Shown: positions 33 through 57,852 of the stretch, piece by piece
Position numbering within the stretch: position 1 is the stretch's first letter
Layout: every line of letters starts with the position of its first letter
Source: Escherichia coli
GTDB taxonomy: Bacteria > Pseudomonadota > Gammaproteobacteria > Enterobacterales > Enterobacteriaceae
DNA: 64,000 nucleotides
Direction: 5' to 3' (one strand)
Assembly: GCF_003991155.1 (NCBI RefSeq)
Contig: NZ_CP031293.1
The notes under the pieces: model-generated
What the model saw: the letters and a program-made list of their open reading frames with translations, nothing else
What the model was told of the DNA's origin: nothing
Databases searched by the model: none
Position numbers and translations under genes: made by a program

Positions 33-1007
33 ATGCCAGTAATGATTAGCGGCGTGTTGTACGCCCTGTTAGCAGGGTTGATGTGGGGGCTTATTTTTGT
101 CGGGCCGTTGATCGTACCGGAATACCCGGCGATGTTGCAGTCGATGGGGCGTTATCTGGCGTTAGGGTTAATTGCGCTGCCCATTGCCTGGCTGGGACGC
201 GTGCGTCTGCGTCAGTTGGCGCGTCGCGACTGGCTTACCGCCTTGATGCTCACCATGATGGGCAACCTTATCTATTACTTCTGCCTTGCAAGTGCCATTC
301 AACGTACTGGCGCGCCTGTTTCCACGATGATTATCGGCACCCTGCCGGTGGTGATTCCCGTTTTTGCCAATCTGCTTTATAGCCAGCGCGACGGCAAACT
401 CGCATGGGGAAAACTCGCCCCGGCACTGGTTTGTATTGGCATCGGCCTGGCGTGTGTGAATATTGCTGAGTTAAACCACGGACTCCCCGATTTTGACTTG
501 GCACGTTATACCTCTGGCATCGTGCTGGCGTTAGTTTCCGTGGTCTGCTGGGCATGGTATGCCCTGCGCAACGCCCGCTGGCTGCGGGAAAATCCCGACA
601 AACATCCGATGATGTGGGCGACGGCGCAGGCGCTGGTCACGCTGCCGGTTTCTCTCATCGGCTATCTCGTCGCCTGTTACTGGCTGAATATGCAAACGCC
701 GGACTTCTCCTTACCCTTTGGCCCCCGTCCGCTGGTGTTTATTAGTCTGATGGTTGCGATAGCCGTGCTTTGCTCATGGGTTGGCGCACTCTGCTGGAAC
801 GTCGCCAGCCAGCGATTACCGACAGTGATTCTCGGGCCGCTGATTGTTTTCGAAACGCTGGCAGGTTTGCTGTACACCTTTTTACTCCGCCAGCAAATGC
901 CGCCGCTAATGACGCTGAGCGGTATCGCGCTGTTAGTGATTGGCGTGGTCATCGCGGTCAGAGCAAAACCAGAAAAACCTTTAACTGAATCTGTCTCAGA
1001 AAGTTGA
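33..1007 (+). CDS. ytfF: Inner membrane protein, DMT/EamA-like transporter family (YtfF)
   Basis: 324-aa ORF, highly hydrophobic multi-TM sequence; position immediately upstream of ytfE as in E. coli K-12 (from memory). True start may be a few codons inside the ORF. Confidence 0.8.
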   Translation: MPVMISGVLYALLAGLMWGLIFVGPLIVPEYPAMLQSMGRYLALGLIALPIAWLGRVRLRQLARRDWLTALMLTMMGNLIYYFCLASAIQRTGAPVSTMIIGTLPVVIPVFANLLYSQRDGKLAWGKLAPALVCIGIGLACVNIAELNHGLPDFDLARYTSGIVLALVSVVCWAWYALRNARWLRENPDKHPMMWATAQALVTLPVSLIGYLVACYWLNMQTPDFSLPFGPRPLVFISLMVAIAVLCSWVGALCWNVASQRLPTVILGPLIVFETLAGLLYTFLLRQQMPPLMTLSGIALLVIGVVIAVRAKPEKPLTESVSES

Positions 1008-1065
1008 CACGCTGGCAGTGAGTTAAATAAGCCTCTGCTACGTAAGGGTTATAGCTTTTGCCTTA

Positions 1066-1088
1066 AAGATGCATTTAAAATGCATCTT
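1066..1088. promoter_or_regulatory. NsrR operator (11-1-11 inverted repeat aagatgcatttaaaatgcatctt) in ytfE promoter
   Basis: Near-perfect palindrome seen in sequence about 27 bp upstream of the ytfE ATG; matches the known NsrR box of the ytfE promoter (established knowledge). Confidence 0.6.
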
Positions 1089-1114
1089 ATCTTATTAAGA
1101 ATGAGGTATCAGCT

Positions 1115-1777
1115 ATGGCTTATCGCGACCAACCTTTAGGTGAACTGGCGCTCTCTATTCCTCGCGCTTCGGCTCTGTTTCGTAAATATGATATGGATTA
1201 CTGCTGTGGCGGTAAGCAGACGCTGGCGCGCGCGGCGGCACGTAAAGAACTGGATGTTGAGGTCATTGAAGCCGAACTGGCAAAGCTTGCTGAACAACCG
1301 ATTGAGAAAGACTGGCGTAGCGCCCCGCTGGCGGAAATCATCGACCACATTATTGTGCGCTATCACGATCGCCATCGCGAGCAGCTGCCGGAGCTGATTC
1401 TGCAAGCGACTAAAGTCGAGCGCGTTCACGCCGACAAACCGAGCGTGCCAAAAGGGCTGACAAAATACCTGACTATGCTGCATGAAGAGCTTTCCAGCCA
1501 CATGATGAAAGAAGAGCAGATCCTCTTCCCGATGATCAAACAAGGCATGGGCAGCCAGGCAATGGGGCCAATCAGCGTAATGGAAAGCGAGCACGATGAA
1601 GCGGGTGAACTGCTGGAAGTAATCAAACACACTACCAATAACGTCACACCGCCGCCGGAAGCCTGCACCACCTGGAAAGCGATGTATAACGGCATTAATG
1701 AACTGATTGATGACCTGATGGAGCACATCAGCCTGGAAAATAATGTGCTGTTCCCGCGCGCACTGGCGGGTGAGTGA
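1115..1777 (+). CDS. ytfE: Iron-sulfur cluster repair di-iron protein YtfE (RIC)
   Basis: 220-aa ORF beginning [33 protein letters not shown], recognised as YtfE/RIC; hemerythrin-like His/Glu motifs. Confidence 0.92.
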
Positions 1778-1784
1778 TCTAAAA

Positions 1785-1809
1785 GCTGGATGGCATTGCG
1801 CCATCCAGC
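1785..1809. terminator. Hairpin (gctggatggc / gccatccagc) between convergent ytfE and cycA
   Basis: 10-bp perfect inverted repeat with 5-nt loop in the 44-bp gap between two convergent stop codons; no clear T-tract. Confidence 0.35.
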
Positions 1810-1821
1810 ATGATAATGCGG

Positions 1822-3234
1822 TTATTTCCGCAGTTCAGCAGCCCGCTTCTTACCAATAAACAACCAGCCCAACCCCAGCGCGATAAACCACAGCGGGGTA
1901 ACCAGCAGCGCCTGGCGAGTGTCATCTTCCAGTGTCAGCAACACGACCACGAACACAAAGAACGCCATACATACCCAGCACATCAGCTTGCCGAGCGGCA
2001 TCTTATAGATCGACTTCTCATGCAGATGAGGACGCTGTTTGCGGTACACCAGGTACGAGCAAAGGATAATCGTCCAGACGAACATAAACAGAATCGCGGA
2101 AACGGTCGTGATCATCGTGAACGCGCCAATCACGCTGGGATTCACATACAGCATCACCACGCCGCCGAGCAGACAGATGCAGGAGAAGGTCAGCCCTTTC
2201 GCGGGTACTGCGCGCTTAGAGAGTTTAGCGAACGCTTTCGGTGCCACACCTTCCTGGGCCAGACCAAACAGCATACGGCTGGTAGAGAAGACACCGCTGT
2301 TAGCGGAAGAAGCGGCAGAGGTCAGCACCACAAAGTTAATCACGCTGGCGGCAGCAGGCAGACCCACCAACACGAACAGTTCAACAAACGGGCTTTTCTC
2401 CGGGACTACCGAACTCCACGGCGTCACGGACATAATCACAATCAGCGCGAAGACGTAGAACATAATGATACGGATCGGAATGGAGTTAATCGCGCGTGGC
2501 AGTGATTTCTCTGGATCTTTGGTTTCCGCAGCGGTGGTACCTACCAGCTCAATCCCTACGAAAGCGAAAACCGCTATCTGGAATCCGGCAAAGAAGCCAC
2601 TTAAACCTTTCGGGAACCAGCCGCCATCATTCCACAAATGCGCGAATGACGCTTCCACACCGGTCGGTGACTGAAAGTGCATCGCCACCATGACCAGGCC
2701 GACGACTATCAGCGACACAATGGCGACGATTTTGATCATCGCAAACCAGAACTCCATCTCACCGAACATTTTCACGGTGGCGAGGTTAAGCGTCAGCAGC
2801 AGCACTATCACCGCCAGCGAGGCGACCCAGTCGGAGAGATCGGGGAACCAGAACTGAGCATAAGCCGTGATCGCCACCACGTCTGCCATACCGGTTACAA
2901 CCCAGCAGAACCAGTAAGTCCAGCCGGTGAAATATCCTGCCCACGGCCCGAGTAAATCGGAAGCGAAGTCACTAAAAGATTTGTATTCCAGATTCGAAAG
3001 CAGCAATTCCCCCATTGCCCGCATCACGAAAAAGAGCATAAAACCGATGATCATATAAACGAAAATGATCGACGGCCCGGCAAGGCTAATCGTTTTGCCG
3101 GACCCCATAAACAACCCTGTACCAATGGCACCGCCAATGGCAATAAGCTGAATATGTCGGTTTGTGAGATTGCGCCGTAGCGACTGTTCAGCCGGAGCCT
3201 GATCATCGGCAACGACTTTTACCTGATCTACCAT
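1822..3234 (-). CDS. cycA: D-serine/D-alanine/glycine:H+ symporter CycA (APC family)
   Basis: 470-aa ORF, APC-family amino acid permease sequence; synteny with ytfE and fklB. Confidence 0.92.
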   Translation of the reverse strand: MVDQVKVVADDQAPAEQSLRRNLTNRHIQLIAIGGAIGTGLFMGSGKTISLAGPSIIFVYMIIGFMLFFVMRAMGELLLSNLEYKSFSDFASDLLGPWAGYFTGWTYWFCWVVTGMADVVAITAYAQFWFPDLSDWVASLAVIVLLLTLNLATVKMFGEMEFWFAMIKIVAIVSLIVVGLVMVAMHFQSPTGVEASFAHLWNDGGWFPKGLSGFFAGFQIAVFAFVGIELVGTTAAETKDPEKSLPRAINSIPIRIIMFYVFALIVIMSVTPWSSVVPEKSPFVELFVLVGLPAAASVINFVVLTSAASSANSGVFSTSRMLFGLAQEGVAPKAFAKLSKRAVPAKGLTFSCICLLGGVVMLYVNPSVIGAFTMITTVSAILFMFVWTIILCSYLVYRKQRPHLHEKSIYKMPLGKLMCWVCMAFFVFVVVLLTLEDDTRQALLVTPLWFIALGLGWLFIGKKRAAELRK

Positions 3235-4380: not shown

Positions 4381-5019
4381 ATGCCCGGGCGCTTTGAACT
4401 AAAACCAACCCTGGAGAAAGTCTGGCACGCGCCGGACAATTTTCGCTTCATGGACCCGCTGCCGCCGATGCATCGTCGGGGGATCATTATTGCCGCCATT
4501 GTATTGGTAGTCGGATTTCTGCTTCCATCTGATGATACGCCCAACGCGCCAGTGGTGACGCGTGAAGCGCAGTTAGATATTCAGTCGCAATCACAACCAC
4601 CGACAGAAGAACAGCTGCGGGCGCAATTAGTCACGCCACAAAATGATCCTGATCAGGTGGCTCCGGTCGCTCCAGAACCAATACAGGAAGGCCAGCCAGA
4701 AGAGCAGCCGCAAACCACCCATACGCAACCATTCCAGCCAGATAGCGGAATTGATAATCAATGGCGCTCCTATCGTGTCGAACCCGGTAAAACGATGGCG
4801 CAGCTGTTCCGCGACCACGGACTGCCCGCTACCGATGTCTATGCCATGGCGCAGGTAGAAGGCGCGGGTAAGCCGCTGAGTAATTTGCAAAACGGGCAGA
4901 TGGTGAAAATCCGCCAGAACGCCAGCGGCGTGGTGACGGGCTTAACCATTGATACGGGGAATAATCAACAGGTCCTGTTTACCCGCCAGCCGGATGGCAG
5001 TTTTATTCGTGCGCGGTAG
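4381..5019 (+). CDS. ytfB: Cell division protein YtfB (OapA/LysM-like C-terminal domain)
   Basis: ORF 4345..5019; start set at [23 protein letters not shown] to give 212 aa; Pro/Gln-rich linker then C-terminal OapA-like domain. Confidence 0.8.
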
Positions 5020-5650
5020 ATGAAGGGTCAACCAAAAGCCAGCTAAGGATTGTCTCTTTGATGACCTTACGTCTGGCTTCCAGTGCCTGGGGTGAAACCA
5101 TACTGATGTGATAAACCAGGCCAAGCGTATGCTGGTTGATCAAATAATATCCCCCAAGCGCAGCAATATTAATATTCACCTGCAATGGGTCGATATCTGG
5201 CTTAAAAATATTGTGTTTCTTCCCTTCATCCAATAAGGATTCCATTAACTGCAAGTGCGCATGGTTAATTTCTAAAAGACGCTGTGACTTTGCATAATGC
5301 ACACCCTTACTTTGATTTTCACTATGCACAATTTTTAAAAACCAGGGATTAGAAATATAATAATCCCATGTAAAATCGATTATTTTCTCAATGGCTTTCT
5401 GTGGCGGAAGATCTGAGAAATCAAGGGCCTTTTCTTTTTGTCGAATATCGTTCCAGGTATATTCCAGTACTTCGATAAATAAATTTTCTTTATTACCAAA
5501 GTGGTGATAAACCGTCTGTTTACTGCACCCTGCTGCCTTGACAATATTATCGACTCTGGCCCCTTCGTAACCATATTCGGCAAATTCATTAACCGCGCAT
5601 AACAGCAGCTTTTCTTTCAGGCTCTGTACGTTGCTGGTATCAAGATACAT
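5003..5650 (-). CDS. TetR/AcrR-family transcriptional regulator, divergent from the catabolic operon
   Basis: N-terminal HTH signature ([28 protein letters not shown]) typical of TetR; start set at [11 protein letters not shown] (215 aa); AT-rich coding sequence; 3' end overlaps ytfB by 17 bp (convergent). Possibly the intact counterpart of the K-12 ytfA fragment (from memory, unverified). Confidence 0.8.
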
Positions 5651-5862
5651 AACGCTTCCCCACGACCTCTTCGTGGTGACTATCATAACCTGATTTGATT
5701 TCAGCTTCAGAAAAAAGGGCAAAAACTTGTACTTTCATCAGGTTATCAAATGTCCTGTGATCGCCATCGCATATCAACCAACTAGATGGTTGATCTTTTT
5801 ATCATCCAGTCGCAAGCTAATCATCACCAAGGAAACAAAATTCAAAAAAAGAGAGCTATTGT

Positions 5863-6654
5863 ATGAAATCCACTCGTCCTGTTGCCGTGATTACCGGAGC
5901 CGCTCGTGGTATTGGAAAGGGCTGTGCGCTGGAGCTTGCGCGTGGCGGATTTAATCTGCTGATTAATGATCGTCCGGATGCGGATAGCGTAGAAAAATTA
6001 CATGCCACACAACAAGAATGTCTGGCGGAAGGCGTGGAAGTGATTTGCTTCCCTGCTGATGTGGGCGATCTCTCCCTTCATGAAGAGATGCTCGACGCGG
6101 CGCAAAACCAGTGGGGACGTCTGGACTGTCTACTCAACAACGCAGGCATTTCAGTGAAAAAACGCGGTGACCTCCTCGACCTCGAACCAGACAGCTTCGA
6201 TCAAAACATTGCCATTAACACCCGCGCGCCGTTCTTCCTTGCTCAGGCATTCAGTAAGCGCTTACTGGCACAGCCGAAACCGGAAGCAGAACTGCCGCAC
6301 CGCTCGATTATTTTTGTCAGTTCCATCAACGCCATCATGCTGGCGATGAATCGCGGCGAATATACCATTGCCAAAACTGCCGTCTCCGCCGCAGCTCGTC
6401 TGTTTGCCGCTCGCCTTTGCAATGAACAAATTGGCGTTTATGAAGTGCGCCCTGGTCTCATCAAAACTGATATGACTATTCCGGCAACGGCTTATTACGA
6501 CGAACTGATTGCCAAAGGTCTGGTGCCGTGGGGACGTTGGGGTTATCCGGCTGATATTGCTTCCACTGTCCGCGCGATGGCGGAAGGTAAACTGATTTAC
6601 ACCTGCGGTCAGGCGGTTGCCATCGACGGCGGCTTAAGTATGCCGCGCTTCTGA
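5863..6654 (+). CDS. Short-chain dehydrogenase/reductase (SDR) family oxidoreductase
   Basis: 263-aa ORF with N-terminal TGAARGIGKG Rossmann motif and SDR-like catalytic region; first gene of the operon. Confidence 0.85.
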   Translation: MKSTRPVAVITGAARGIGKGCALELARGGFNLLINDRPDADSVEKLHATQQECLAEGVEVICFPADVGDLSLHEEMLDAAQNQWGRLDCLLNNAGISVKKRGDLLDLEPDSFDQNIAINTRAPFFLAQAFSKRLLAQPKPEAELPHRSIIFVSSINAIMLAMNRGEYTIAKTAVSAAARLFAARLCNEQIGVYEVRPGLIKTDMTIPATAYYDELIAKGLVPWGRWGYPADIASTVRAMAEGKLIYTCGQAVAIDGGLSMPRF

Positions 6655-6663
6655 GGCTGAATC

Positions 6664-7506
6664 ATGAGAGATCTGTTACAACGCCCGGATTTATTCAGTA
6701 TCAATACCGCAACACTGGGCTATAAAACGCCGCTACCCGCCATTATTGATGCCTGCGCCGCACGCGGTATTGGCGCAATTGCCCCCTGGCGCAGGGAGTT
6801 GCAGGGTGAAGATCTCCAGCAAATCGCCCGCCAGCTTGCTGCCAGTAACATAAACGTTTCCGGTTTGTGCCGTAGCACCTACTACACCGCACCGACGCTG
6901 GCGGAGCGCAAACTGGCGATTGACGATAACCGCCGGGCGCTGGACGACGCCGCTGTACTGAACGCTGCCTGTTATATGCAGGTGGTTGGCGGTCTGCCAA
7001 TGGGAACAAAAGATCTGTACGAAGCGCGGGAACAGGTGAAACAAGGGATTCGCCAGTTGCTGCCACATTCGAAAGATGTCGGTGTGCCAATTGCACTGGA
7101 GCCACTGCACCCGATGACTGCTGCCGATCGTTCTTGTCTGTGCACGTTACGTCAGGCGCTGGACTGGTGTGATGAACTCGATCCCGATGGCGAATTTGGC
7201 CTCGGCGTGGCGGTAGATGTCTACCATGTCTGGTGGGATCCGGATCTCGCCAGTCAGATCCTGCGTGCCGGAAAACGCATCCTCGCGTTTCATGTTTCCG
7301 ACTGGTTAGTGCCGACCACCGATCTGGTCAATGACCGTGGAATGCCGGGAGATGGTGTCATCAATATTCCGTCAATTCGTCGGCTGGTTGAAAACGCCGG
7401 ATTTAATGGCGCTATTGAACTGGAAATATTCTCACCGTATTGGTGGCAGCAAGATATTGACAGCACACTGGATATTAGCGTCGATCGCATCGCGCATTAT
7501 TGCTAA
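6664..7506 (+). CDS. Sugar-phosphate isomerase/epimerase-like TIM-barrel protein (xylose isomerase-like fold)
   Basis: 280-aa ORF; resembles the AP-endonuclease-2/xylose-isomerase-like TIM-barrel family (hydroxypyruvate isomerase, dehydroshikimate dehydratase, IolE-like). Family call from memory. Confidence 0.7.
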   Translation: MRDLLQRPDLFSINTATLGYKTPLPAIIDACAARGIGAIAPWRRELQGEDLQQIARQLAASNINVSGLCRSTYYTAPTLAERKLAIDDNRRALDDAAVLNAACYMQVVGGLPMGTKDLYEAREQVKQGIRQLLPHSKDVGVPIALEPLHPMTAADRSCLCTLRQALDWCDELDPDGEFGLGVAVDVYHVWWDPDLASQILRAGKRILAFHVSDWLVPTTDLVNDRGMPGDGVINIPSIRRLVENAGFNGAIELEIFSPYWWQQDIDSTLDISVDRIAHYC

Positions 7507-7515
7507 GGAATAATC

Positions 7516-8292
7516 ATGAGTGACCAACCCGTTCTGTTCAGCAGAGCGGCGGCTTCTTGCCGCCTGACATTGAACCGTGAAGATAAATGTCATGCTATTA
7601 ATGAAGAAATGATCGAATCTCTCGACCATTATTTAAATGAAATTGAAAATGACACGGCATTACGCTTAGTCGAATTAACGGCAACCGGCGATAAATTCTT
7701 TTGTGCGGGCGGCGATATTAAATCGTGGTCGGCCTATTCGCCATTAGATATGGGCAGAAAATGGATTAAACGCGGTAACGAGGTTTTTAATCGCCTGCGC
7801 AATTTACCCCAATTAACGGTTGCAAATCTCAACGGTCATACCATTGGCGGTGGGATTGAACTCGCCTTGTGCTGCGATATTCGTATTGCCCGCCCCGGCG
7901 CGAAATTCTCTAACCCGGAAGTGATGCTCGGCATGGTGCCTGGCTGGATGGGCATTGAACGCGTGCTTAATCAGGTTGGCCCGGTGGTCGGTCGCCAGAT
8001 GCTGATGCTGGGTAAACGCCTGACGGCGCAGGAAGCTCAGGCGGCGAATTTAATTGATGAAGTGGTAGAAAAAGAACAGGTGGAAAGCTGGATGGCGAAT
8101 CAGTTAGCGCAGCTGGAAAAATGCGGTCCGGTGGCGCTCGCACATATCAAGCAACTGATTCTGGCACTGGAAAATAAACATGCTGATTACCCGCACCAGT
8201 TACTGGCTGGATTAATGTCCGCCACTCAGGATTGCCAGCAGGCGACGCGCGCCTTTGCCGAAAAAAGTAGCGTGAGCTTCCAAAATCAATAA
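7516..8292 (+). CDS. Enoyl-CoA hydratase/isomerase (crotonase) family protein
   Basis: 258-aa ORF with crotonase-fold hallmarks (FCAGGDIK, GHTIGGGIELALCCDIRIA oxyanion-hole region). Confidence 0.85.
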   Translation: MSDQPVLFSRAAASCRLTLNREDKCHAINEEMIESLDHYLNEIENDTALRLVELTATGDKFFCAGGDIKSWSAYSPLDMGRKWIKRGNEVFNRLRNLPQLTVANLNGHTIGGGIELALCCDIRIARPGAKFSNPEVMLGMVPGWMGIERVLNQVGPVVGRQMLMLGKRLTAQEAQAANLIDEVVEKEQVESWMANQLAQLEKCGPVALAHIKQLILALENKHADYPHQLLAGLMSATQDCQQATRAFAEKSSVSFQNQ

Positions 8293-8301
8293 GGAAATTG
8301 T

Positions 8302-9843
8302 ATGCGTAAGATAACAACCACCGAGACACTGGCGGCGCAAATTCAGGACGGCGCAACCATTGCCATTAGCGGTAATGGCGGCGGAATGGTGGAAGCGGAC
8401 CATATTCTGGCTGCTATTGAAGCGCGTTTCCTGCAAACCGGACACCCGCGCGATCTGACATTAATCCACTCGCTGGGCATTGGCGATCGCGACTGCAAAG
8501 GCACTAACCGCTTCGCTCATGCAGATATGCTCAAACGCATCATTGCCGGGCACTTTACCTGGTCGCCCAAAATGCAGGCGCTGGTAAAAAATAACACGAT
8601 TGAAGCCTACTGCTTTCCTGGTGGCGTGATTCAGGCACTGCTACGGGAGATCGGCGCCGGACGTCCGGGGCTTTTTACCCACGTTGGGCTGGGATCGTTT
8701 GTTGATCCACGCAATGGCGGCGGTAAGTCGAATGAATGCACGACCGACGACCTGGTAGAACTGATTGAAATCGATGGTGAAACCAAACTTCGTTATCGCC
8801 CTTTCAAAGTGGATTACGCGATTTTGCGTGGCACTTATGCCGATCCACGAGGCAACGTCAGCCTCGAAGAAGAGGCGATTGATATGGATAGCTATTCGAT
8901 GGCGCTGGCAGCACACAACAGCGGCGGCAAAGTGTTCGTACAGGTACGCGATGTGCTGGAAGCTGGCGCGATTGAACCACGCCGGGTCAAATTACCGGGC
9001 ATTCTGGTTGATGGCATCGTTGAACACCGCGAACAACCGCAAACCTATCTTGGCGGTTACGACCTGACCATTAGCGGTCAACATCGCCGTCTGAGTTCTA
9101 ACGACGCTATTGAACTGGTTAGTCATCCAGTACGCCGCCTGATTGCCCGTCGGGCAGCACGCGAACTGGTGGCTGGCGCTTCAACCAACTTTGGCTTTGG
9201 TATTCCTGGCGGTATTCCAGGCGTAGCGCTGCGCGAAGGCGTTCCTTACCAAAGTTTATGGCTGAGCGTCGAGCAAGGTGTACATAACGGCATGATGCTG
9301 GATGATGCGTTCTTCGGCTGCGCCCGCAACGCCGACGCCATTATTCCATCACTCGATCAATTTGAGTTCTACAGTGGCGGAGGGATCGATATCACCTTCC
9401 TCGGCATGGGAGAGATGGATCAGTACGGTAACGTCAACGTCTCCCATCTCAATGGCAATCTGATTGGCCCCGGCGGATTTCTCGAAATTGCGCAAAACGC
9501 CCGTAAAGTGGTGTTCTGCGGCACGTTCGACGCCAAAGGTAGCAAGATCGATGTAACGCCAGATGGCTTGCATATCGCCCAGTCAGGTCAAATCCCTAAA
9601 CTGGTTACCCAGGTGGAAAAAATCACTTTTAGCGCCGCCTACGCACAGCAAAGCGGTCAGGAAGTGTTGTATATCACTGAACGTGCAGTATTCCAGTTAA
9701 CGGCAGAAGGCGTTGAATTAATTGAAATCGCACCGGGTGTGGAGATTGAGCGCGACATTCTGCCGTATATGGCTTTCCGTCCAATTATCAAGCACCCACG
9801 CCTGATGGAAAGTAGCCTGTTTACGCCGATGGAGGATGCATGA
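8302..9843 (+). CDS. Family-I CoA-transferase (acyl-CoA:acetate/3-ketoacid CoA-transferase, YdiF/Pct-like, fused subunits)
   Basis: 513-aa ORF; shares conserved blocks with E. coli YdiF and propionate CoA-transferase (FVDPR, YITERAVF, LIEIAPGV) as recalled from memory. Confidence 0.8.
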   Translation: MRKITTTETLAAQIQDGATIAISGNGGGMVEADHILAAIEARFLQTGHPRDLTLIHSLGIGDRDCKGTNRFAHADMLKRIIAGHFTWSPKMQALVKNNTIEAYCFPGGVIQALLREIGAGRPGLFTHVGLGSFVDPRNGGGKSNECTTDDLVELIEIDGETKLRYRPFKVDYAILRGTYADPRGNVSLEEEAIDMDSYSMALAAHNSGGKVFVQVRDVLEAGAIEPRRVKLPGILVDGIVEHREQPQTYLGGYDLTISGQHRRLSSNDAIELVSHPVRRLIARRAARELVAGASTNFGFGIPGGIPGVALREGVPYQSLWLSVEQGVHNGMMLDDAFFGCARNADAIIPSLDQFEFYSGGGIDITFLGMGEMDQYGNVNVSHLNGNLIGPGGFLEIAQNARKVVFCGTFDAKGSKIDVTPDGLHIAQSGQIPKLVTQVEKITFSAAYAQQSGQEVLYITERAVFQLTAEGVELIEIAPGVEIERDILPYMAFRPIIKHPRLMESSLFTPMEDA

Positions 9844-11921
9844 GCCAGCTTGATGACACCCTCCTTGATGCGCTGACACACGTCACTTTCCCAAAGGGTT
9901 TTGTGTCAGCAGAGCCAGCGTCAATTGTCACGGTTGAAGATGTCGATTACCCGATCTGGCAAGTTGATGCGCTAGTCGTTGGTAGCGGCGCAGCAGGATT
10001 ACGTGCGGCAGTTGAACTTAAACGCCGCCAGCAAAATGTGCTGATCGCCACCGCCGGGTTATATATGGGGACATCGGCATGTTCTGGCTCTGATAAACAG
10101 ACGCTGTTTACCGCCGCTACCGCGGGCAACGGCGATAACTTCGCCAAACTGGCGGAAGCACTGGCGAGCGGTGGGGCGATGGATCATGACACCGCTTATG
10201 TCGAAGCGGTAGGTTCTCTGCACACTCTTGGCGGGTTGCAATATCTTGGTCTGGAATTACCGGAAGATCGCTATGGCGCGATTCTTCGTTATCAAACCGA
10301 CCATGACGAAGCCGGGCGTGCAACCTCGTGTGGGCCGCGTACCTCAAGGTTAATGGTGAAAGTGCTGTTGGAAGAAGTACAGCGCCTCGCCATTCCAGTG
10401 TTGACCAGTGCAACAGTGATTAAACTGCTGCATCAGCGTGACGAAAACGGCGAAGACCGTGTGGCGGGGGCAATCCTCGCGACCGGTCATCGCGCCCTTA
10501 ACCCATGGGGGCTGGCAATTGTGACTGCGCCCAATGTGGTACTGGCAACAGGAGGGCCTGGCGAGCTTTATCGCGACAGTGTGTACCCACACAAATGTTT
10601 TGGCTCGCTGGGGCTGGCGCTGGAGGAAGGCCTGACACTAACTAATCTGACCGAAAGCCAGTTTGGTATAGGCACGCCGCGCAGCACGTTTCCGTGGAAT
10701 TTGTCCGGCACCTATGTGCAGGTGATCCCATATATCTATTCCGTGGATGCTGAGGGTAACGAGTATAACTTCCTCGCGGATTACTATCGCACCACCCAGG
10801 AGCTGGCTTCAAACATCTTCCGTAAAGGCTATCAGTGGCCGTTCCACGCCACGCGGGTAATGGATTTTGGCTCCAGCTTGTTAGATATGGCGGTGGCGCA
10901 AGAGCAGCAATCAGGGCGTCAGGTATTTATGGATTTCAATCGTAATCCTGTAGCGGTGCCTGGTGATTTGCCCTTCTCATTAGATCGACTGGACGACGAC
11001 GTTCGCGCGTATCTGGAAAATAACGACGCTCTGGCACCATCGCCCATCGAACGACTGCAACGAATGAATCCGCTGTCTATCTCGCTGTATAAGATGCACG
11101 GTTACGATCTCACCACGCAGCCATTGCAGTTTGCCATGAATAATCAGCACATGAATGGCGGCATTGAAGTCGATATCTGGGGACAAACATCTCTGCCCGG
11201 TTGTTTTGCAGTGGGGGAAGTTGCTGGCACACACGGCGTCACCCGACCTGGCGGCGCGGCGTTGAATGCCGGGCAGGTTTTTGCTGTTCGTCTGGCGCGC
11301 TTTATTGGTTGCACGCAAAAGCGGAATATTGATGGAGATATTGCACAGCTGGCAGCTCCGGCACTGGCTTCTATAAGAGAGATCATTACTCAGGCGCACG
11401 ATAACGGGACCGGGATGCCGTTGTCGATTGTGAGAGAAAAAATTCAGGCACGAATGTCTGACTATGCGGGATTTATTTGCCATGCCGATAAAGTTCGACG
11501 TGCCACTCGTGATGCCCTGCTATTGAGTGAATTTGTCCAACAGCATGGATTGGCAATCAAACATGTGGGCGAAGTTGCCGAGCTGTTTATGTGGCGGCAT
11601 ATGGCACTGACTTCTGCCGCCGTATTAACGCAATTGACGCATTATATTGACGCAGGTGGTGGTAGCCGGGGAGCACGTATTATTCTCGACAGTGATGGAA
11701 ATTCTATTCCGCAAACACGAAATGGTTTTTGTGATGCCTGGCGCTTTCGTTCAGAGCGTACTGAGGATAAAAAAGATAAACTACTTATTCATTATTGCAA
11801 CGGTATCTTTCACGTCAGAGAAACACCTGTTCGTGAGTTTCCTATTATCCGAGGTATTTGGTTTGAAAAAAACTGGCCTGGTTTTCTTAATGGGACAATT
11901 TACCAGCCACAGGATGAATGA
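9840..11921 (+). CDS. FAD-dependent oxidoreductase (fumarate reductase/succinate dehydrogenase flavoprotein-like superfamily), 693 aa
   Basis: Dinucleotide-binding motif VVGSGAAGLRAA near the N-terminus and a second glycine-rich FAD motif (AVGEVAGTHGVTRPGGAALNAG); ATGA overlap with upstream and downstream genes; the last ~90 codons are encoded by AT-rich DNA. Confidence 0.75.
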   Translation: MSQLDDTLLDALTHVTFPKGFVSAEPASIVTVEDVDYPIWQVDALVVGSGAAGLRAAVELKRRQQNVLIATAGLYMGTSACSGSDKQTLFTAATAGNGDNFAKLAEALASGGAMDHDTAYVEAVGSLHTLGGLQYLGLELPEDRYGAILRYQTDHDEAGRATSCGPRTSRLMVKVLLEEVQRLAIPVLTSATVIKLLHQRDENGEDRVAGAILATGHRALNPWGLAIVTAPNVVLATGGPGELYRDSVYPHKCFGSLGLALEEGLTLTNLTESQFGIGTPRSTFPWNLSGTYVQVIPYIYSVDAEGNEYNFLADYYRTTQELASNIFRKGYQWPFHATRVMDFGSSLLDMAVAQEQQSGRQVFMDFNRNPVAVPGDLPFSLDRLDDDVRAYLENNDALAPSPIERLQRMNPLSISLYKMHGYDLTTQPLQFAMNNQHMNGGIEVDIWGQTSLPGCFAVGEVAGTHGVTRPGGAALNAGQVFAVRLARFIGCTQKRNIDGDIAQLAAPALASIREIITQAHDNGTGMPLSIVREKIQARMSDYAGFICHADKVRRATRDALLLSEFVQQHGLAIKHVGEVAELFMWRHMALTSAAVLTQLTHYIDAGGGSRGARIILDSDGNSIPQTRNGFCDAWRFRSERTEDKKDKLLIHYCNGIFHVRETPVREFPIIRGIWFEKNWPGFLNGTIYQPQDE

Positions 11922-12418
11922 TATTGCAAAGGTTAATCACTATGCGAAATATAATTAGATCTATTAATGCTCTACTTGCAGCATTGAACATTACCATTTT
12001 GGCGATCATCGTGGCATGTGTGACGTGGCAGGTGGCTGCACGATTTATATTTACTAGTCCCAGTATTTTTACAGATGAACTCAGCCGTTTGCTCTTTATT
12101 TGTCTTGGACTTTTTGGTGGGGCATACACCGCAGGGCAAAACCGGCATCTGGCGATTGACCTGATACCTATGATGCTGAAAGGAAAAGCCCGACGTCATT
12201 TATTTTTGTGTATTCAGATTATCGTTATTATCTTCGCTACCATCATTATGGTATATGGTGGTGGGCTATTAACGATGGATACATTCGATTCAGGTCAGAC
12301 CTCGCCCGCTTTAGGCTGGCAAATGGGATATATCTATATGAGCATCCCGATGAGTGGTGTACTTATTATTATATACACCATAGATATGGTTTTAACCGAA
12401 CTTAAACAACCACTCTAA
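11918..12418 (+). CDS. TRAP transporter small permease subunit (DctQ-like)
   Basis: 166-aa hydrophobic ORF with about 4 predicted TM segments directly upstream of a DctM-like gene; an alternative start at the internal MRNIIRS is possible. Confidence 0.75.
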   Translation: MILQRLITMRNIIRSINALLAALNITILAIIVACVTWQVAARFIFTSPSIFTDELSRLLFICLGLFGGAYTAGQNRHLAIDLIPMMLKGKARRHLFLCIQIIVIIFATIIMVYGGGLLTMDTFDSGQTSPALGWQMGYIYMSIPMSGVLIIIYTIDMVLTELKQPL

Positions 12419-12460
12419 AGATAACAAACAACAACCAACCATAGTAGGAATGGAGAAATT

Positions 12461-13762
12461 ATGGATTACTGGTTACCGATTATTGTGTTATTTGGTGCCT
12501 TCTTTTTTATGTTGGCATTAGGTGTACCTATTGTTTATGCCATTGGTTTATCGACACTGGCATCAATTTCCACACAACTCGATTTCAACTCAGCATTGAG
12601 TGTGGTTTCCCAAAAGTTAGCCTCCGGGTTAGATAGTTTTACGTTGTTGGCAATCCCATTTTTTATCTTGTCTGGCAACATTATGAATCATGGAGGAATA
12701 GCGCGACGATTAATCAACTTTGCCCGTATTCTCGGCGGTCGTCTGCCAGGCTCACTTGCCCACTGTAATATTCTCGCCAATATGCTGTTCGGGGCAATTT
12801 CTGGTTCAGCCGTGGCTTCGGCGGCTGCGATGGGCGGCGTCATGCATCCGCAACAGGTTAAAGAGGGCTACGACCCGGCATTCAGTACTGCGGTTAACGT
12901 TGCCTCTGCCCCGACGGGTTTGCTTATTCCACCAAGTAATACGTTAATCGTCTATTCACTGGTCAGTGGTGGTACTTCTATTGCCGCACTGTTTCTGGCG
13001 GGTTATGTTCCGGGAATTTTGCTGGGTCTGGCACTGATGGTAATAGCCGGTATTATCGCGGTACGTCGCGGTTATCCAAAGCCAGAACGCCCGACTTTAC
13101 GCCAGGCTGGCGTTGCGATATGGATGGCTATCCCCAGTATTTTCCTGATTATTTTAATTATGGGGGGTGTATTAAGTGGTATTTTTACCCCGACAGAGGC
13201 CTCCGCAATTGCAGTAATTTATACCCTTTTCCTTGCACTGGTTCTTTATCGTGAAATCTCAGTTAAAGATTTACCTAAAATATTTCTGGAATCCGTTATT
13301 ACCACTGCAATTGTCTTGTTATTAATTGGTTCTTCGATGGGAATGTCATGGGCGATGTCAAACGCTGACGTTCCCTTCCTGATTCTCGATTTGCTTAACA
13401 CTATTTCTGACAACCCAATAATAATCCTGCTTATTATCAATATTATCCTGTTGATTATCGGCACTTTTATGGATATGACACCGGCGGTACTGATTTTTAC
13501 GCCGATATTTTTACCGGTTGTCACCGAACTGGGCATGGACCCGATTCACTTTGGTATTGTCATGGTACTGAACATGTGTATCGGTATTTGTACTCCGCCT
13601 GTAGGCAGTGTGTTATTTGTCGGTTGTAGTGTATCTAAATTACCGATTAATAAAATTATCAAACCTATGCTGCCATTTTATGCCGTGATGGTATTGGTGC
13701 TGGCAATGGTGACCTATATTCCGCAAATCAGTATGGCATTGCCAAGAGCACTGGGTTACTGA
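12461..13762 (+). CDS. TRAP transporter large permease subunit (DctM-like)
   Basis: 433-aa polytopic membrane protein with DctM-family features; AT-rich. Confidence 0.88.
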   Translation: MDYWLPIIVLFGAFFFMLALGVPIVYAIGLSTLASISTQLDFNSALSVVSQKLASGLDSFTLLAIPFFILSGNIMNHGGIARRLINFARILGGRLPGSLAHCNILANMLFGAISGSAVASAAAMGGVMHPQQVKEGYDPAFSTAVNVASAPTGLLIPPSNTLIVYSLVSGGTSIAALFLAGYVPGILLGLALMVIAGIIAVRRGYPKPERPTLRQAGVAIWMAIPSIFLIILIMGGVLSGIFTPTEASAIAVIYTLFLALVLYREISVKDLPKIFLESVITTAIVLLLIGSSMGMSWAMSNADVPFLILDLLNTISDNPIIILLIINIILLIIGTFMDMTPAVLIFTPIFLPVVTELGMDPIHFGIVMVLNMCIGICTPPVGSVLFVGCSVSKLPINKIIKPMLPFYAVMVLVLAMVTYIPQISMALPRALGY

Positions 13763-13814
13763 TGCGCATTCACTGGCGGCACCTGCCGCCATATTTATTA
13801 GAAAAGGAACATCT

Positions 13815-14786
13815 ATGAAAATAAAAGTATCCGCTGGCATTATCGGTGCTGTTCTTATGTTATCCGCAAGCCAGTCCTGGGCAGTGACATTAAAACTGAG
13901 TCATAATCAGGATAAGTCTCATCCTGTTCATAAAGCGATGGAGTTCTTTGCGAAAAAGAGCAAAGAGTACTCTAACGGTGATATTACTATTCGTATTTAT
14001 CCAAATGGAACATTGGGTACTCAACGAGAAACAATGGAGCTGATTCGTTCTGGCGCTATTCCACTGGTAAAAACCAACGCGGCAGAAATGGAAGCATTTG
14101 AAAATTCCTATAAATTATTTAGCCTGCCTTATTTGTTCCGCGATCGTGATCATTATTATCAGGTCATGCAGGGCGATATCGGGAGAAAAATCCTCGACTC
14201 AACGAAAAGCAAAGGTTATTTCGGGCTGACTTTTTATGATGGAGGCGCCCGCAGTTTCTACGGCAATAAACCAGTACTGAAACCAGACGATCTCAAAGGC
14301 ATGAAAGTCCGTGTCCAGCCAAGTCCTGGCGCAGTTGAAATGATCAAAGTCATGGGCGGTAACCCGACGCCACTGGATTACGGCGAGTTGTATACAGCCT
14401 TACAGCAGGGTGTGGTCGATATGGCAGAAAACAGCGTGATGGCGCTGACCACCATGCGTCACGGTGAAGTGGCAAAATCCTTCAGCCTTGACGAACACAC
14501 TATGGTTCCCGATGTGGTTCTGATGAGCAATGCTGCGTTTGATAAACTTAGCCCGGAAAATCAGGCAGTTATATTAAAAGCAGCTAAAGAATCAATGAGC
14601 TACATGAAAGACTTGTGGAGCGAGGAAGAGAAACAAGAATTTGCAAAACTGGATAAAATGGGCGTGAAAGTCTACCAGGTAGATAAAGCTCCGTTTATCG
14701 AGAAAGTACAGCCAATGTACGCAAACTTCGCTAAGGACAACCCAGCCCTTGCCCCAATGCTGGCTGATATTCAGGCAGCTAAGTAA
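13815..14786 (+). CDS. TRAP transporter periplasmic solute-binding protein (DctP/YiaO-like)
   Basis: 323-aa ORF with signal peptide (MKIKVSAGIIGAVLMLSASQSWA) and DctP-family sequence; last gene of the operon. Confidence 0.85.
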   Translation: MKIKVSAGIIGAVLMLSASQSWAVTLKLSHNQDKSHPVHKAMEFFAKKSKEYSNGDITIRIYPNGTLGTQRETMELIRSGAIPLVKTNAAEMEAFENSYKLFSLPYLFRDRDHYYQVMQGDIGRKILDSTKSKGYFGLTFYDGGARSFYGNKPVLKPDDLKGMKVRVQPSPGAVEMIKVMGGNPTPLDYGELYTALQQGVVDMAENSVMALTTMRHGEVAKSFSLDEHTMVPDVVLMSNAAFDKLSPENQAVILKAAKESMSYMKDLWSEEEKQEFAKLDKMGVKVYQVDKAPFIEKVQPMYANFAKDNPALAPMLADIQAAK

Positions 14787-14842
14787 TTATCTTCGTAGGG
14801 CTGCTTATTGTGGCCCTTATCGATATCTGCAAGTGCTCGCTA

Positions 14843-14877
14843 CAAAAGCAAAACGCCGACCAATGGTCGGCGTTTTT
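14843..14877. terminator. Bidirectional rho-independent terminator between the TRAP operon (+) and rplI (-)
   Basis: GC hairpin cgccgacc-aat-ggtcggcg flanked by an A-run upstream and a T-run downstream, read directly from the sequence. Confidence 0.6.
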
Positions 14878-14897
14878 ACGTCTCGTTGAATAACGAA

Positions 14898-15359
<462 letters not shown>

Positions 15360-55660: not shown

Positions 55661-56368
55661 ATTATTCATTATTTTCATTAAAGCAGTTTTCTTTTCAAGA
55701 ATACGTCGACCATATTCACTGTATTCTCTCTGATGGGATCCTTTCGGTGCTGCAATGGAGTCTATAATATCTTGTTTATTTCTTTCAATACCACGGTTGT
55801 ATCGGGAGCCGACTACAATTAACTGCTCATCCGTTAAATTAGTGGTGTCACCTATTTCCGGATAGTCATAATGTATAAGGTCTCGTAAATGAAATGCTAC
55901 CACTCTAATGTTGAAGCGGTCATTTAGTAAGCACTGGGAAAGTTGGAACTGCTCAAAGGATGACAAAAGATCTGGATGTATCCCTATAGTCCTGGCTGCA
56001 ACGCCTAACTGTATTGCGACAGAACCGACTGAAGTAGAGTTTGAGTAGGTATTGCCTCCTCTCTTTGAAACGGCCTCTAGGATTATTTTTAATTGCAGCA
56101 CCCCCACTGGTTTAAATCTTTCTGGCATTCCGCCAACCTCAGCAGCCGCAACGCCCGCAAGTAATAATAACGGGATTTGCGCCTCTTTGGCATATTGCCA
56201 CAACATATCACGGTGATAAATCAACCATGATGTTTTATATAACCATAAGTGTGCAGTCCCCGTGCTGAATGTCCAATTAGTCGGAAGAAAACGCCATCGA
56301 AAATAATCAATGCCATTCCATTTAGGAAAGCCTAATTCATCAACTTCGCAAAAAATAAGATTATTCAT
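55655..56368 (-). CDS. Hypothetical protein, 237 aa, tentative lysozyme-like (GH23/SLT-like) motifs; no signal peptide
   Basis: Intact ORF with AT-rich composition; ordered motifs AAAEVGG ... GSVAIQLG ... NIRVVAFHL ... VGSRYNRG resemble the E-S / G-L-M-Q / A-Y-N-x-G blocks of lytic transglycosylases (manual inspection only); translationally coupled to yjeO. Confidence 0.55.
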   Translation of the reverse strand: MNNLIFCEVDELGFPKWNGIDYFRWRFLPTNWTFSTGTAHLWLYKTSWLIYHRDMLWQYAKEAQIPLLLLAGVAAAEVGGMPERFKPVGVLQLKIILEAVSKRGGNTYSNSTSVGSVAIQLGVAARTIGIHPDLLSSFEQFQLSQCLLNDRFNIRVVAFHLRDLIHYDYPEIGDTTNLTDEQLIVVGSRYNRGIERNKQDIIDSIAAPKGSHQREYSEYGRRILEKKTALMKIMNNL

Positions 56369-56510
56369 TTAAAGTCCCTTATTAAAATCATTCCCAGAAT
56401 GAAGAATAGTACTATCATCAGAAAAACTGATTTGTGATGGGACAGACAAAAAATATAAAAAAGGGTTCGACTTAAGATAATCAAGATAAAACATATATAC
56501 CCAATAAACC

Positions 56511-56939
56511 TCAAGATGCGGGTGTGAGCACCTGAAAGTGATCGTTAATTCGGGATGTCAGAGAGTCCGCTATATCCGGCAGCGTCTGGTTAAAAAAGAC
56601 AGAAAAACGGGATACATTATATTCATGAATGGTTTTATATTCGCAGATTAGCGGTGACGTCAGTGCTTTCAGATTCAGCGCCCCCATGATATTCAGGCGT
56701 GTGCGGCAGCCTGTTGTTTTTACTGCTTTTTTCTGGCCTTTACGTATCCAGCCATAGCTGATTTTAGTGGCCTGAGTCGGATGGACTCCATCAATAAAAA
56801 GAACCGGTTCATCACCCACAGTTATTTTCAGTTCCTCATAATATTCAATGAATTGCCTTTGTTTCTCTTCACTGAATTTATGGGGGACGCCTGACGGTTT
56901 TTTGTAGGTGAAACCATTACGATGCAGCCACTTATTCAT
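56511..56939 (-). pseudogene. IS630-family transposase fragment (C-terminal part)
   Basis: 142-aa ORF MNKWLHRNGFTYKKPSGVPHKFSEEKQRQFIEYYEEL, separated by a frameshift or gap from the N-terminal fragment. Confidence 0.6.
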
Positions 56940-57031
56940 CCCCGGAATGCTGAAAATGATGTTCCATGTCCGGGTGATAAACGCAATAACATCGCGGGTA
57001 TGGTGAAATAAATTATCGGATAACTGGCTGA

Positions 57032-57328
57032 TTAAAAGGCCGTTTGTTCAGCACTGAGTTTGCTGTCTGAGCCGCCGTTTTCGGGCTTCAGTTTTCCTTT
57101 ATTCAGGAATTCGCTGATATGGTGATCAATCGTTGTCTGATGCAAGCGTAAAGCCTGAGCAATCATGGCAGAACTCCAGCCTTCGGAAACCAGAAGAATG
57201 GCTTTAATACGATCTCTGACTCGCCCGTCACGACTGGAATCATGAAGGCGTTCAAGTTCAGCTTTTTGTTGCTCAGTAATGAATATTTTCATGTTGGACA
57301 GCATGATCTTCTGTTGCTGAAAAATCAA
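57032..57328 (-). pseudogene. IS630-family transposase fragment (N-terminal HTH part)
   Basis: 98-aa ORF with HTH region; no contiguous reading frame with the downstream fragment. Confidence 0.6.
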
Positions 57329-57439
57329 GCATCTTCAATGATCACGGGTATATAAGGTGAATATTTATTGTTTTTAATATAAAAATCGCTTGCCCAACTT
57401 ACAGAGTGACTGCAAGCTGGATAATATACTCGTCATACT

Positions 57440-57852
57440 TCAGAACGGTAAGCAAACGGGGTGAACGCTGACCTCTGCGGCTAAAGCGCGCCAGGACGGC
57501 GGTATATAAGGTTTTGTAGCAGGATGGTCTCATCCGGCTACAAACAAAACTGATAGCGCAGAAAAAACTGCCACAGCCAGTAGCCGAAAATCACAAGCGC
57601 GGTGGCATACATAAACCAGCCGCGTTTTTTTCGCCACAAAGCGAACCAGAGAAAAGGGAAAAAGAGCGGTAACGTCATTATCACACCGACATCGCGGGTA
57701 TCATCATTTTCCAGATACTCCAGCACATGGCAGATATTTTTAACCCCACCTTCATCAATCATCCACTCTTTGTCCAGCGTGGAAGTGATGACTATCTAGG
57801 GGATCGCTACAACAAACCAGATGCAGCATAAGACAAACGTGCGCGCACTCAT
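57440..57852. repeat. Segmental duplication copy B (fossil of mscM 3' end + hairpin + yjeN)
   Basis: See copy A; copy B carries about 60 bp homologous to the last codons of mscM although no mscM gene is adjacent. Boundaries approximate. Confidence 0.6.
57538..57852 (-). pseudogene. yjeN: YjeN/YjeO-family small membrane protein with in-frame TAG at codon 19 (possible pseudogene or 74-aa N-truncated product)
   Basis: Reading from ATG at 57852 gives MSARTFVLCCIWFVVAIP-stop(TAG, 57796..57798)-IVITSTLDKEWMIDEGG...; the stop aligns with a Trp in the paralog at 55341..55658; ORF track reports only the 74-aa downstream frame 57538..57762. Confidence 0.5.

Follow-up and report, generated by a model that had tools for sequence, protein, structure and literature searches.

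A TRAP transporter of hexuronate ancestry in an exchangeable cassette behind a putative CoA-dependent operon of Escherichia coli

Introduction

In Escherichia coli contig NZ_CP031293.1 (RefSeq assembly GCF_003991155.1), the 64,000-nucleotide stretch analysed here (the window) contains three adjacent genes, dctQ, dctM and dctP, for a transporter of the tripartite ATP-independent periplasmic (TRAP) type at the end of an operon for coenzyme A (CoA)-dependent and other enzymes. The locus raises the question of which acid this transporter imports, and whether it serves the enzymes behind which it stands. The original prediction, made from the DNA alone, had drawn on gene order: the small permease (Q) comes first, the large permease (M) second and the binding protein (P) last, as in the E. 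coli YiaMNO system for 2,3-diketo-L-gulonate, and a second transporter for sugar acids or related carboxylates was suggested. The sequence of the 64-kb window is 100% identical in several complete E. coli genomes, for example NZ_CP029747.1.

The comparisons described below make it fairly probable that dctQMP encode a working TRAP importer of hexuronate ancestry, a swappable uptake module that would feed a CoA-using operon with a hexuronate-like acid. The transporter itself is ordinary; its RefSeq annotation is already correct and its class is well studied. The main interest lies in the hexuronate ancestry within a non-hexuronate operon, in a polymorphism between TRAP and major facilitator superfamily (MFS) uptake, and in the uncharacterised operon and flavoprotein family. 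The original prediction is partly supported as a whole, having missed both the hexuronate ancestry of all three subunits and the cassette polymorphism.

The TRAP genes

The three genes of the transporter are as follows.

11918..12418, + strand: dctQ, TRAP small membrane subunit; 166 aa; Pfam DctQ PF04290, 2.8e-29, profile positions 1-131 of 132
12461..13762, + strand: dctM, TRAP large membrane subunit; 433 aa; Pfam DctM PF06808, 4.2e-119, profile positions 1-413 of 413
13815..14786, + strand: dctP, periplasmic substrate-binding protein; 323 aa; Pfam DctP PF03480, 2.5e-83, profile positions 2-285 of 286

Adjacent genes of the DctQ, DctM and DctP families, which define the TRAP class, are thus found with full-length Pfam matches, and the NCBIfam subfamily cut-offs are also passed (TIGR00786, 458 bits against 268, for dctM; TIGR00787, 248 against 175, for dctP). 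RefSeq labels the trio as TRAP small permease, large permease and substrate-binding protein, and places the dctQ start at 11942. The start at 11918 overlaps the stop codon of the upstream flavoprotein gene by 4 nt, while the RefSeq start lies 20 nt after it. The gaps between dctQ and dctM and between dctM and dctP are 42 and 52 nt, respectively. An exported binding protein, also expected of the class, is indicated by the N-terminus of DctP (MKIKVSAGIIGAVLMLSASQSWA/VT), which is signal-peptide-like by eye, and is helical with a low predicted local distance difference test (pLDDT) score in the AlphaFold model; the mature fold begins at about residue 24 (model pLDDT 89.8).

The open reading frames are intact. 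In comparisons with Klebsiella huaxiensis and one more distant relative, the proportion of non-synonymous differences (pN) is 0.03-0.23 and that of synonymous differences (pS) is 0.73-0.92, the latter being saturated; since pN is far below pS, the genes are under purifying selection. The predicted system in Q-M-P order, with the binding protein last, is confirmed by the reading frames and their full-length matches, and dctQMP encode an intact TRAP transporter.

Relatives of the binding protein and the permeases

The 14 best PDB matches of DctP (E values 6e-72 to 5e-52) form one top-scoring group. It holds every PDB entry whose hexuronate ligand was confirmed here from the literature, and the same group is recovered by Foldseek with the AlphaFold model (TM-score about 0.8-0.9, identity 31-39%), so that the closest relatives in both sequence and fold lie inside it. 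The remaining members are reportedly hexuronate binders as well (Vetting et al. 2015). Among the proteins of the hexuronate-binder group are STM3169, Apre_1383, Bpro_3107 and Bamb_6123. The confirmed ligands are galacturonate for 4N8Y and glucuronate for 4X8R (PMC11668362), and glucuronate for 4N91 and 4MHF; entry 4N15 has served as the modelling template for the Salmonella binding protein STM3169 (PMC7660916).

A homologue search covering 5.8 billion proteins places DctP in a tight clade of 76-99% identity, which comprises sequences from E. coli, E. fergusonii, K. huaxiensis and a few metagenomes. Beyond an identity gap lie hundreds of proteins at 61% or less (Vibrio, Psychromonas, Providencia, Aeromonas and others), the nearest of them, at 55-61%, from Providencia, Vibrio and Aeromonas. 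In all three of the relatives inspected, one from each of these genera, the TRAP genes are accompanied by genes for UxaC, UxuA, a GntR regulator and a member of the mannitol dehydrogenase family; in Vibrio and Aeromonas a PfkB kinase and 2-keto-3-deoxy-6-phosphogluconate (KDPG) aldolase are found in addition, and in Providencia a family-2 glycoside hydrolase.

The permease subunits give the same picture. DctQ is 42-47% identical to the Q subunits of hexuronate TRAPs but 27% to YiaM, and DctM 65-69% to the corresponding M subunits but 36% to YiaN; DctP is 56% identical to the E. coli orthologue of STM3169 (see below), compared with 28% to YiaO. As far as sequence comparison goes, these relationships demonstrate that all three subunits descend from a TRAP family serving hexuronate (D-glucuronate/D-galacturonate) catabolism. 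The suggestion of a sugar-acid-type TRAP is borne out in that DctP groups, by sequence and by fold, with hexuronate binders.

Ligand-binding residues of DctP

STM3169 binds D-glucuronate with a dissociation constant of 0.17 µM, and its contact residues are N35, Q36, E74, R150, R170, N210 and D237 (PMC7660916). The residues of DctP aligned to these are N31, Q32, Q70, R146, R166, N206 and D233. Six of the seven are identical, the exception being the replacement of E74 by Q70, and glutamine at this position is common to the uxu-linked proteins of Vibrio, Aeromonas and Providencia.

The carboxylate-binding arginine that the original prediction had proposed to look for is present: R166 aligns with R170 of the STM3169 orthologue (R147 of SiaP) and is invariant in 62 aligned sequences. 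Both carboxylate arginines, R146 and R166, are universal among the TRAP binding proteins compared, and because such an arginine occurs in about 97% of TRAP binding proteins (PMC5812351), R166 discriminates little between ligands. The retained N31, Q32, Q70 and D233 are informative, since YiaO and four further TRAP binding proteins have other residues at these positions. The two outcomes named as speaking against a sugar-acid transporter, absence of the arginine and clustering with binding proteins of unrelated specificity, are not observed, because R166 is kept and DctP groups with sugar-acid binders.

The operon and its conservation

Between ytfB and rplI, eight genes on one strand (5863-14786) overlap or are separated by short gaps, and the TRAP genes are the final three. 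The remaining features of the locus are as follows.

5003..5650, - strand: TetR/AcrR-family regulator, divergent from the operon (RefSeq mapping; Pfam TetR_N and TetR_C_29 on orthologues)
5773..5794, no strand: 22-bp palindrome ATCAACCAACTAGATGGTTGAT, candidate TetR operator (inverted repeat in the divergent TetR/SDR intergenic region)
5863..6654, + strand: short-chain dehydrogenase/reductase (SDR), operon gene 1 (Pfam adh_short_C2, 4.5e-42; NCBIfam PRK12745, 421 bits)
6664..7506, + strand: xylose-isomerase-like TIM-barrel protein of the sugar isomerase/epimerase/dehydratase class (Pfam AP_endonuc_2, 6e-38)
7516..8292, + strand: crotonase-family enoyl-CoA hydratase/dehydratase (Pfam ECH_1, 8e-45)
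8302..9843, + strand: fused class I CoA-transferase, YdiF/Pct type (Pfam CoA_trans; PDB 2AHU YdiF, 5e-114)
9840..11921, + strand: 693-aa FAD-binding oxidoreductase of an uncharacterised branch of the FrdA/SdhA/NadB superfamily (Pfam FAD_binding_2, 8e-28)
14850..14876, detected on the - strand: hairpin terminator with a 12-bp stem, downstream of both dctP and the convergent rplI

The SDR carries the TGxxxGxG and YxxxK motifs. The closest PDB entries to the TIM-barrel protein are 3QC0/3JU2, the uncharacterised SMc04130 of S. meliloti (9e-86); a literature search on PDB 7VPF, 3JU2, 3QC0 or SMc04130 found nothing relevant. The crotonase has glutamates at 115 (GGGIE) and 135 (NPE), which, assigned by motif, we take to be in the positions of the two catalytic glutamates of crotonases. 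In BL21(DE3), ECD_04073 is described as a CoA-transferase absent from K-12 and 46% identical to the propionate CoA-transferase of Megasphaera elsdenii (PMC6150544); from its locus number and this description, the operon CoA-transferase is probably its orthologue. Apart from this mention, full-text searches found no paper on the operon.

The palindrome at 5773-5794 is invariant in both variants of E. coli, in E. whittamii and in Entomohabitans, and differs by one base in K. huaxiensis, in contrast to its diverging flanks, as might be expected of a candidate TetR operator. At the other end, the stem at 14850-14876 is flanked by an A-run and a T-run and could act as a terminator in both directions. 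It is the sole strong terminator; within the operon, sites resembling promoters or terminators do not exceed their frequency in shuffled sequence, and no Rfam families were found in 4800-15200.

K. huaxiensis also has all eight genes, likewise between ytfB and rplI. An organism of 63% guanine plus cytosine (GC), referred to here as L002, has the five enzyme genes, Q, M and an inverted P, together with a MaoC dehydratase and a TetR gene, at a different site. The linkage of TRAP to the enzymes thus survives relocation and the Q-M-P order does not, because the L002 locus lies at an unrelated site with dctP inverted. The association with CoA-dependent enzymes noted originally is upheld by this recurrence as well as by the shared operon, and as far as comparative data go the TRAP genes appear truly co-operonic with them. 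In E. whittamii, another Escherichia species and Entomohabitans, an identical TetR and five-enzyme operon ends in a 425-aa MFS transporter instead, which scores 314 bits with the NCBIfam D-galactonate transporter subfamily and has DgoT (2e-40) as its best PDB match, followed by sialin. This alternative is a predicted anion:cation symporter, and its family relationships independently point to a sugar-acid-like anion.

TRAP and MFS cassettes in the E. coli population

At its 3' end, the locus exists in E. coli with either of two cassettes, one of them the TRAP module. Of 5426 complete E. coli genomes, 3113 (about 57%) have at least 80% of the enzyme genes, 1444 carry the TRAP cassette and 1686 the MFS cassette; the BL21-like strain DL21 has the MFS form. 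The edges of the exchanged block are the following.

11650..11921, no strand: left cassette edge (sliding identity and BLAST against the MFS-variant locus L092; GC falls to 42%)
14837..14876, no strand: right cassette/island edge (BLAST; homology resumes at 14837 in the MFS variant and at 14845 in K-12)

The TRAP and MFS alleles are about 95% identical up to approximately 11650, then 55-70% over the last ~270 nt of the flavoprotein gene, and are unalignable through the transporter until they realign at 14837. At the protein level, residues 1-603 of the flavoprotein are 96.7% identical between the alleles and residues 604-693 only 57.5%. GC content is 40-45% in 11651-14786, which comprises the TRAP cassette and the last 270 nt of the flavoprotein gene, compared with 50-55% in the upstream enzyme genes, and the GC break coincides with the left recombination breakpoint. 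From the sharpness of these breaks in identity and composition we infer that the swap arose by recombination. Because the 3' end of the flavoprotein gene lies within the exchanged block, flavoprotein and TRAP were already adjacent in the donor. K. huaxiensis was considered as this donor and rejected: the C-terminal part of its flavoprotein is 59% identical, about as distant as that of the MFS allele (57.5%).

In K-12 (MG1655, positions 5588-6096 of the corresponding locus) the island has been lost. Positions 5406-14844 of the window are replaced there by 1.08 kb carrying yjfZ, and homology breaks off at 5405, inside the TetR gene; a 102-nt fragment of the SDR gene (window 5952-6053) remains at 79% identity. 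The pseudogene ytfA of K-12 corresponds to the final 402 nt of the TetR gene (window 5003-5405) and is thereby explained as the stump of the operon's regulator. In parts of the E. coli population the operon is decaying. In the MFS-variant E. coli strains 99-3165 and 14EC001, IS1 replaces the crotonase, CoA-transferase and flavoprotein genes, and one of the two is also rearranged.

The locus offers a clean natural case in which non-homologous TRAP and MFS uptake systems are exchanged as cassettes behind the same enzymes within one species, and could help to show under which conditions high-affinity, binding-protein-dependent uptake is an advantage in the gut. Elsewhere in the window, at about 56000-58000, there is a low-GC stretch (43%); the surrounding 12-kb region (mscM, yjeM, epmA, frdA) contains an IS630-family transposase, and 3011 of the 5426 genomes cover at least 80% of it.

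The FrdA-like flavoprotein family

The flavoprotein at the junction of the enzyme genes and the cassette belongs to a family that spans at least 319 species, Proteobacteria, Planctomycetota, Lentisphaerota and Verrucomicrobiota being represented, and has a mean column identity of 65% across 46 sequences. Its sequence matches in the PDB reach 1e-9 at best, and the AlphaFold model (pLDDT 84) finds generic SdhA/FrdA/NadB/AprA folds at 15-19% identity. The family is highly conserved and has no characterised member, and the locus provides a way into it. The sole low-confidence parts of the model are two invariant loops, 77-93 and 152-164 (motifs GTSACSGSDKQTL and QTDHDEAGRATSC).

Counts for the neighbouring genes found most often in the 80 loci examined are as follows.

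Gfo/Idh/MocA dehydrogenase: 31 loci
GMC oxidoreductases, two families: 29 and 24 loci
LacI regulator: 24 loci
SDR: 23 loci
TIM barrel: 21 loci
Crotonase: 17 loci
CoA-transferase: 16 loci

Sugar ABC transporter genes and a PfkB kinase also recur beside the flavoprotein relatives. In Cohaesibacter, the flavoprotein, LacI and TRAP genes adjoin a secreted PL7 alginate lyase; in Accumulibacter, the flavoprotein is found with an SDR, PfkB kinase, KDPG aldolase, TRAP and an enolase-superfamily dehydratase; and in a betaproteobacterium, with a CoA-transferase, crotonase, TRAP, acyl-CoA dehydrogenase, both subunits (alpha and beta) of the electron transfer flavoprotein and a TIM barrel. The association of flavoprotein and TRAP thus recurs with unrelated binding proteins, because these three loci hold other TRAP systems, and the three contexts point to uronates or sugar acids.

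The gene order Q-M-P

Placing the binding protein first is the majority arrangement among TRAP systems according to a review (PMC5812351), and the statement to this effect in the original prediction holds also for the small sample compared here: outside the DctP clade, P comes first in six TRAP systems and is transcribed divergently from Q-M in three related ones, and YiaMNO (yiaM, yiaN and yiaO of E. coli MG1655) alone shares the Q-M-P order of the window. Within the clade, Q-M-P is found in Escherichia and Klebsiella, while in L002 dctP is inverted and converges on dctM, so the weight originally placed on gene order is not sustained. The operon yielded no promoter, attenuator or conserved structure through which the order might acquire regulatory meaning, and for this reason we infer that it is an accident of cassette assembly without evident functional meaning.

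Two candidates for such a meaning were dropped. One is an internal promoter for dctP, given that 14 promoter-like sites are found compared with 14.1 in shuffled sequence. The other is a hairpin in the gap upstream of dctP.

13774..13791, + strand: GC-rich hairpin between dctM and dctP (TGGCGGCA CCTG CCGCCA), from a terminator-like scan; significance doubtful

It folds at -14.7 kcal/mol (z = -1.7), marginally more stable than shuffled sequence, and although found in both E. coli TRAP-variant sequences folded, it is absent from K. huaxiensis.

Proposed function and alternative explanations

By analogy with what is established for the family, secreted DctP would capture an organic-acid substrate in the periplasm, with R166, R146 and N206 holding the carboxylate and N31, Q32, Q70 and D233 the hydroxyls, and would hand it to the DctQ-DctM membrane unit for inward movement driven by a cation gradient. 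The substrate is likely to be D-glucuronate, D-galacturonate or a closely similar polyhydroxy-carboxylate with a ring, such as an unsaturated or deoxy uronate, which the operon enzymes would degrade at least partly as CoA thioesters. The binding protein, the MFS alternative and the flavoprotein contexts together point to a sugar-acid-like anion processed via keto-sugar chemistry and, in the E. coli version, CoA-thioester chemistry. In this way, an eight-gene operon whose enzymes occur in 57% of complete E. coli genomes, K-12 not included, is narrowed to cheaply testable substrates, the uronate-like sugar acids.

A more specific proposal, which we put forward tentatively and with rather low confidence, is that the operon encodes an undescribed hexuronate-type route, in which keto-sugar chemistry by the SDR and the TIM-barrel protein is combined with CoA-thioester chemistry by the Pct/YdiF-type transferase and the crotonase, and with the FrdA-like flavoprotein. 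If this were true, the substrate might be D-glucuronate, D-galacturonate or an unsaturated or deoxy uronate that other microbes of the gut set free, and E. coli lineages would have fitted the route with either high-affinity TRAP or proton-coupled MFS uptake.

Several observations weigh against a hexuronate-like acid as the substrate. The usual hexuronate enzymes UxaC and UxuA/B are not among the operon genes and, because they are missing, the context is unlike that of every relative with a known or context-inferred ligand. We know of no CoA-dependent route for a hexuronate, and in many taxa the flavoprotein, SDR and TIM genes occur without the CoA genes and with neutral-sugar ABC transporters. 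The DctP clade is about 40% diverged from its relatives with known or context-inferred ligand, and carries substitutions that are fixed where 104 outgroup sequences show 85-100% conservation. Two of these are Y to F140 and N to S207, where Y and N occur in 99-100% of the hexuronate-binder group. Residue 140 lies on a strand that pairs with the R146-bearing strand in the AlphaFold model and probably faces the pocket, and S207 directly follows the contact residue N206. Both changes take away hydrogen-bonding groups; they would, as a speculation, suit a ligand one hydroxyl short of glucuronate, and the specificity of DctP may be shifted relative to the hexuronate binders. Finally, ECD_04073 was not expressed in five conditions (PMC6150544). 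As to the missing uxaC, uxuA and uxuB, their association is common but not universal in the hexuronate-binder group, STM3169 itself being without it (PMC7660916).

A simpler explanation would be that dctQMP import plain D-glucuronate or D-galacturonate for UxaC/UxuAB/KdgK/Eda encoded elsewhere, and merely landed at the end of an unrelated operon. The contact residues of DctP do agree with those in glucuronate binders, the cassette has a foreign composition (GC 40-45% compared with 50-55%) and was swapped in by recombination, and the Salmonella STM3169 TRAP genes also stand away from catabolic genes (PMC7660916). We nevertheless regard this as unlikely, given that the donor of the exchanged block, which includes the flavoprotein 3' end, had flavoprotein and TRAP adjacent, that the eight genes are linked again in L002, elsewhere on the chromosome, that the alternative occupant of the slot is also an anion transporter, as would be expected if the slot holds the operon's own uptake gene, and that no separate dctQMP promoter stands out above chance expectation. 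Alternatively, DctP may have drifted towards a carboxylate that is not a sugar acid but suits the CoA enzymes (a short hydroxy-acid, keto-acid or dicarboxylate, for instance), and its likeness to hexuronate binders would be ancestry only. CoA-transferases of the YdiF/Pct type act on short acids. The operon enzyme is of this type and its probable BL21 counterpart resembles the M. elsdenii propionate CoA-transferase (46% identity, PMC6150544); the chemistry of short acyl compounds or dicarboxylates would suit a crotonase and a fumarate-reductase-like flavoprotein, and the fixed substitutions of the clade lie near the pocket. This drift seems improbable to us, since the hydroxyl-binding N31, Q32, Q70 and D233 are all kept, though variable in TRAP binding proteins of other specificity, the MFS alternative is nearest to sugar-acid symporters, and the operon encodes a sugar-type TIM-barrel isomerase.

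The explanation closest to the original prediction, a second YiaMNO-like transporter for 2,3-diketo-L-gulonate or an ascorbate-related compound tied to the ula genes, is effectively refuted. The Q-M-P order is indeed common to yiaMNO, and the window does hold ula genes, which start at about 15.9 kb, within 1-2 kb and beyond the rpsF operon. The parallel ends with the order: identities to YiaM/N/O are 27-36%, scores with the NCBIfam equivalog models are far under cut-off, YiaO differs at all four hydroxyl-binding positions, and no yiaK, lyxK or sgb-type genes are found in the operon. The rpsF-priB-rpsR-rplI operon and yjfY stand between the TRAP genes and ula, and the proximity of ula is coincidental rather than functional, because K-12 keeps the ula-rplI segment although the whole island is missing there. 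Other CoA-dependent pathways that were considered (quinate/shikimate to cyclohexanecarboxylate, carnitine-like and bile-acid-like) are not proposed, as no result supports them. A hexuronate-like acid imported for the operon's own enzymes is thus the interpretation we favour.

Comparison with known systems

YiaMNO shares with the window system the TRAP class and the Q-M-P order. The subunits are only 27% (Q), 36% (M) and 28% (P) identical and the residues at the ligand positions differ; the NCBIfam YiaM and YiaN models give 36 bits (cut-off 260) and 291 bits (cut-off 800), and no YiaO-specific model is among the matches for P. The operon partners are also different, being yiaK, yiaL, lyxK and sgbH for YiaMNO; none of yiaK, lyxK or sgbHUE (the L-xylulose route) is found in window 5000-14900.

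An enterobacterial precedent for the activation of a sugar-derived acid as a CoA thioester, with anion transporters in the same cluster, is provided by the deoxyribonate cluster of Klebsiella michiganensis, in which a sugar acid is catabolised through acyl-CoA intermediates (PMC6365646). Compared by gene content, that cluster has a CoA synthetase, hydroxyacyl-CoA dehydrogenase, thiolase, glycerate kinase, lactonase and two MFS transporters, and is without a TRAP, an FrdA-like flavoprotein or a TIM-barrel protein. It was rejected as the same system on account of this difference and serves as a conceptual precedent only.

The hexuronate binders from the structural genomics work of the Enzyme Function Initiative (4OVR, 4X8R, 4N8Y, 4N15, 4N91, 4MHF and others) are the best PDB matches to DctP in both sequence and fold, but come from unrelated taxa and are only 31-39% identical by Foldseek. 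Closer are the uxu/uxa-linked TRAPs of Vibrio, Aeromonas and Providencia, with a hexuronate ligand inferred from context, whose P, M and Q subunits are 56-61%, 66-69% and 44-47% identical. In these systems P is divergent from Q-M, and none of their cluster enzymes is present in the E. coli operon.

Some E. coli strains have a second accessory TRAP between ygiQ and ftsP, in P-Q-M order (for example NZ_CP124353.1). Its binding protein carries N35, Q36, E74, R150, R170, N210 and D237, in residues and numbering exactly as published for STM3169, and it is for this reason identified as the E. coli orthologue of the Salmonella D-glucuronate TRAP; a weak cross-match in about 1100 complete genomes probably reflects this locus. 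The STM3169-STM3171 system, by way of its E. coli orthologue, is 56% (P), 65% (M) and 42% (Q) identical to that of the window, with the same fold, both arginines and the N, Q, N and D contacts in common. The differences are the order (P-Q-M there, Q-M-P in the window), the residues E74, Y144 and N211 in place of Q70, F140 and S207 of DctP, and the genes alongside: the ygiQ-ftsP TRAP is accompanied by an FCD regulator, a mannitol-dehydrogenase-family protein, a zinc-dependent alcohol dehydrogenase and an Ldh-family oxidoreductase, and the Salmonella STM3169 TRAP by no such neighbours (PMC7660916), whereas the window TRAP stands with enzymes of a CoA pathway.

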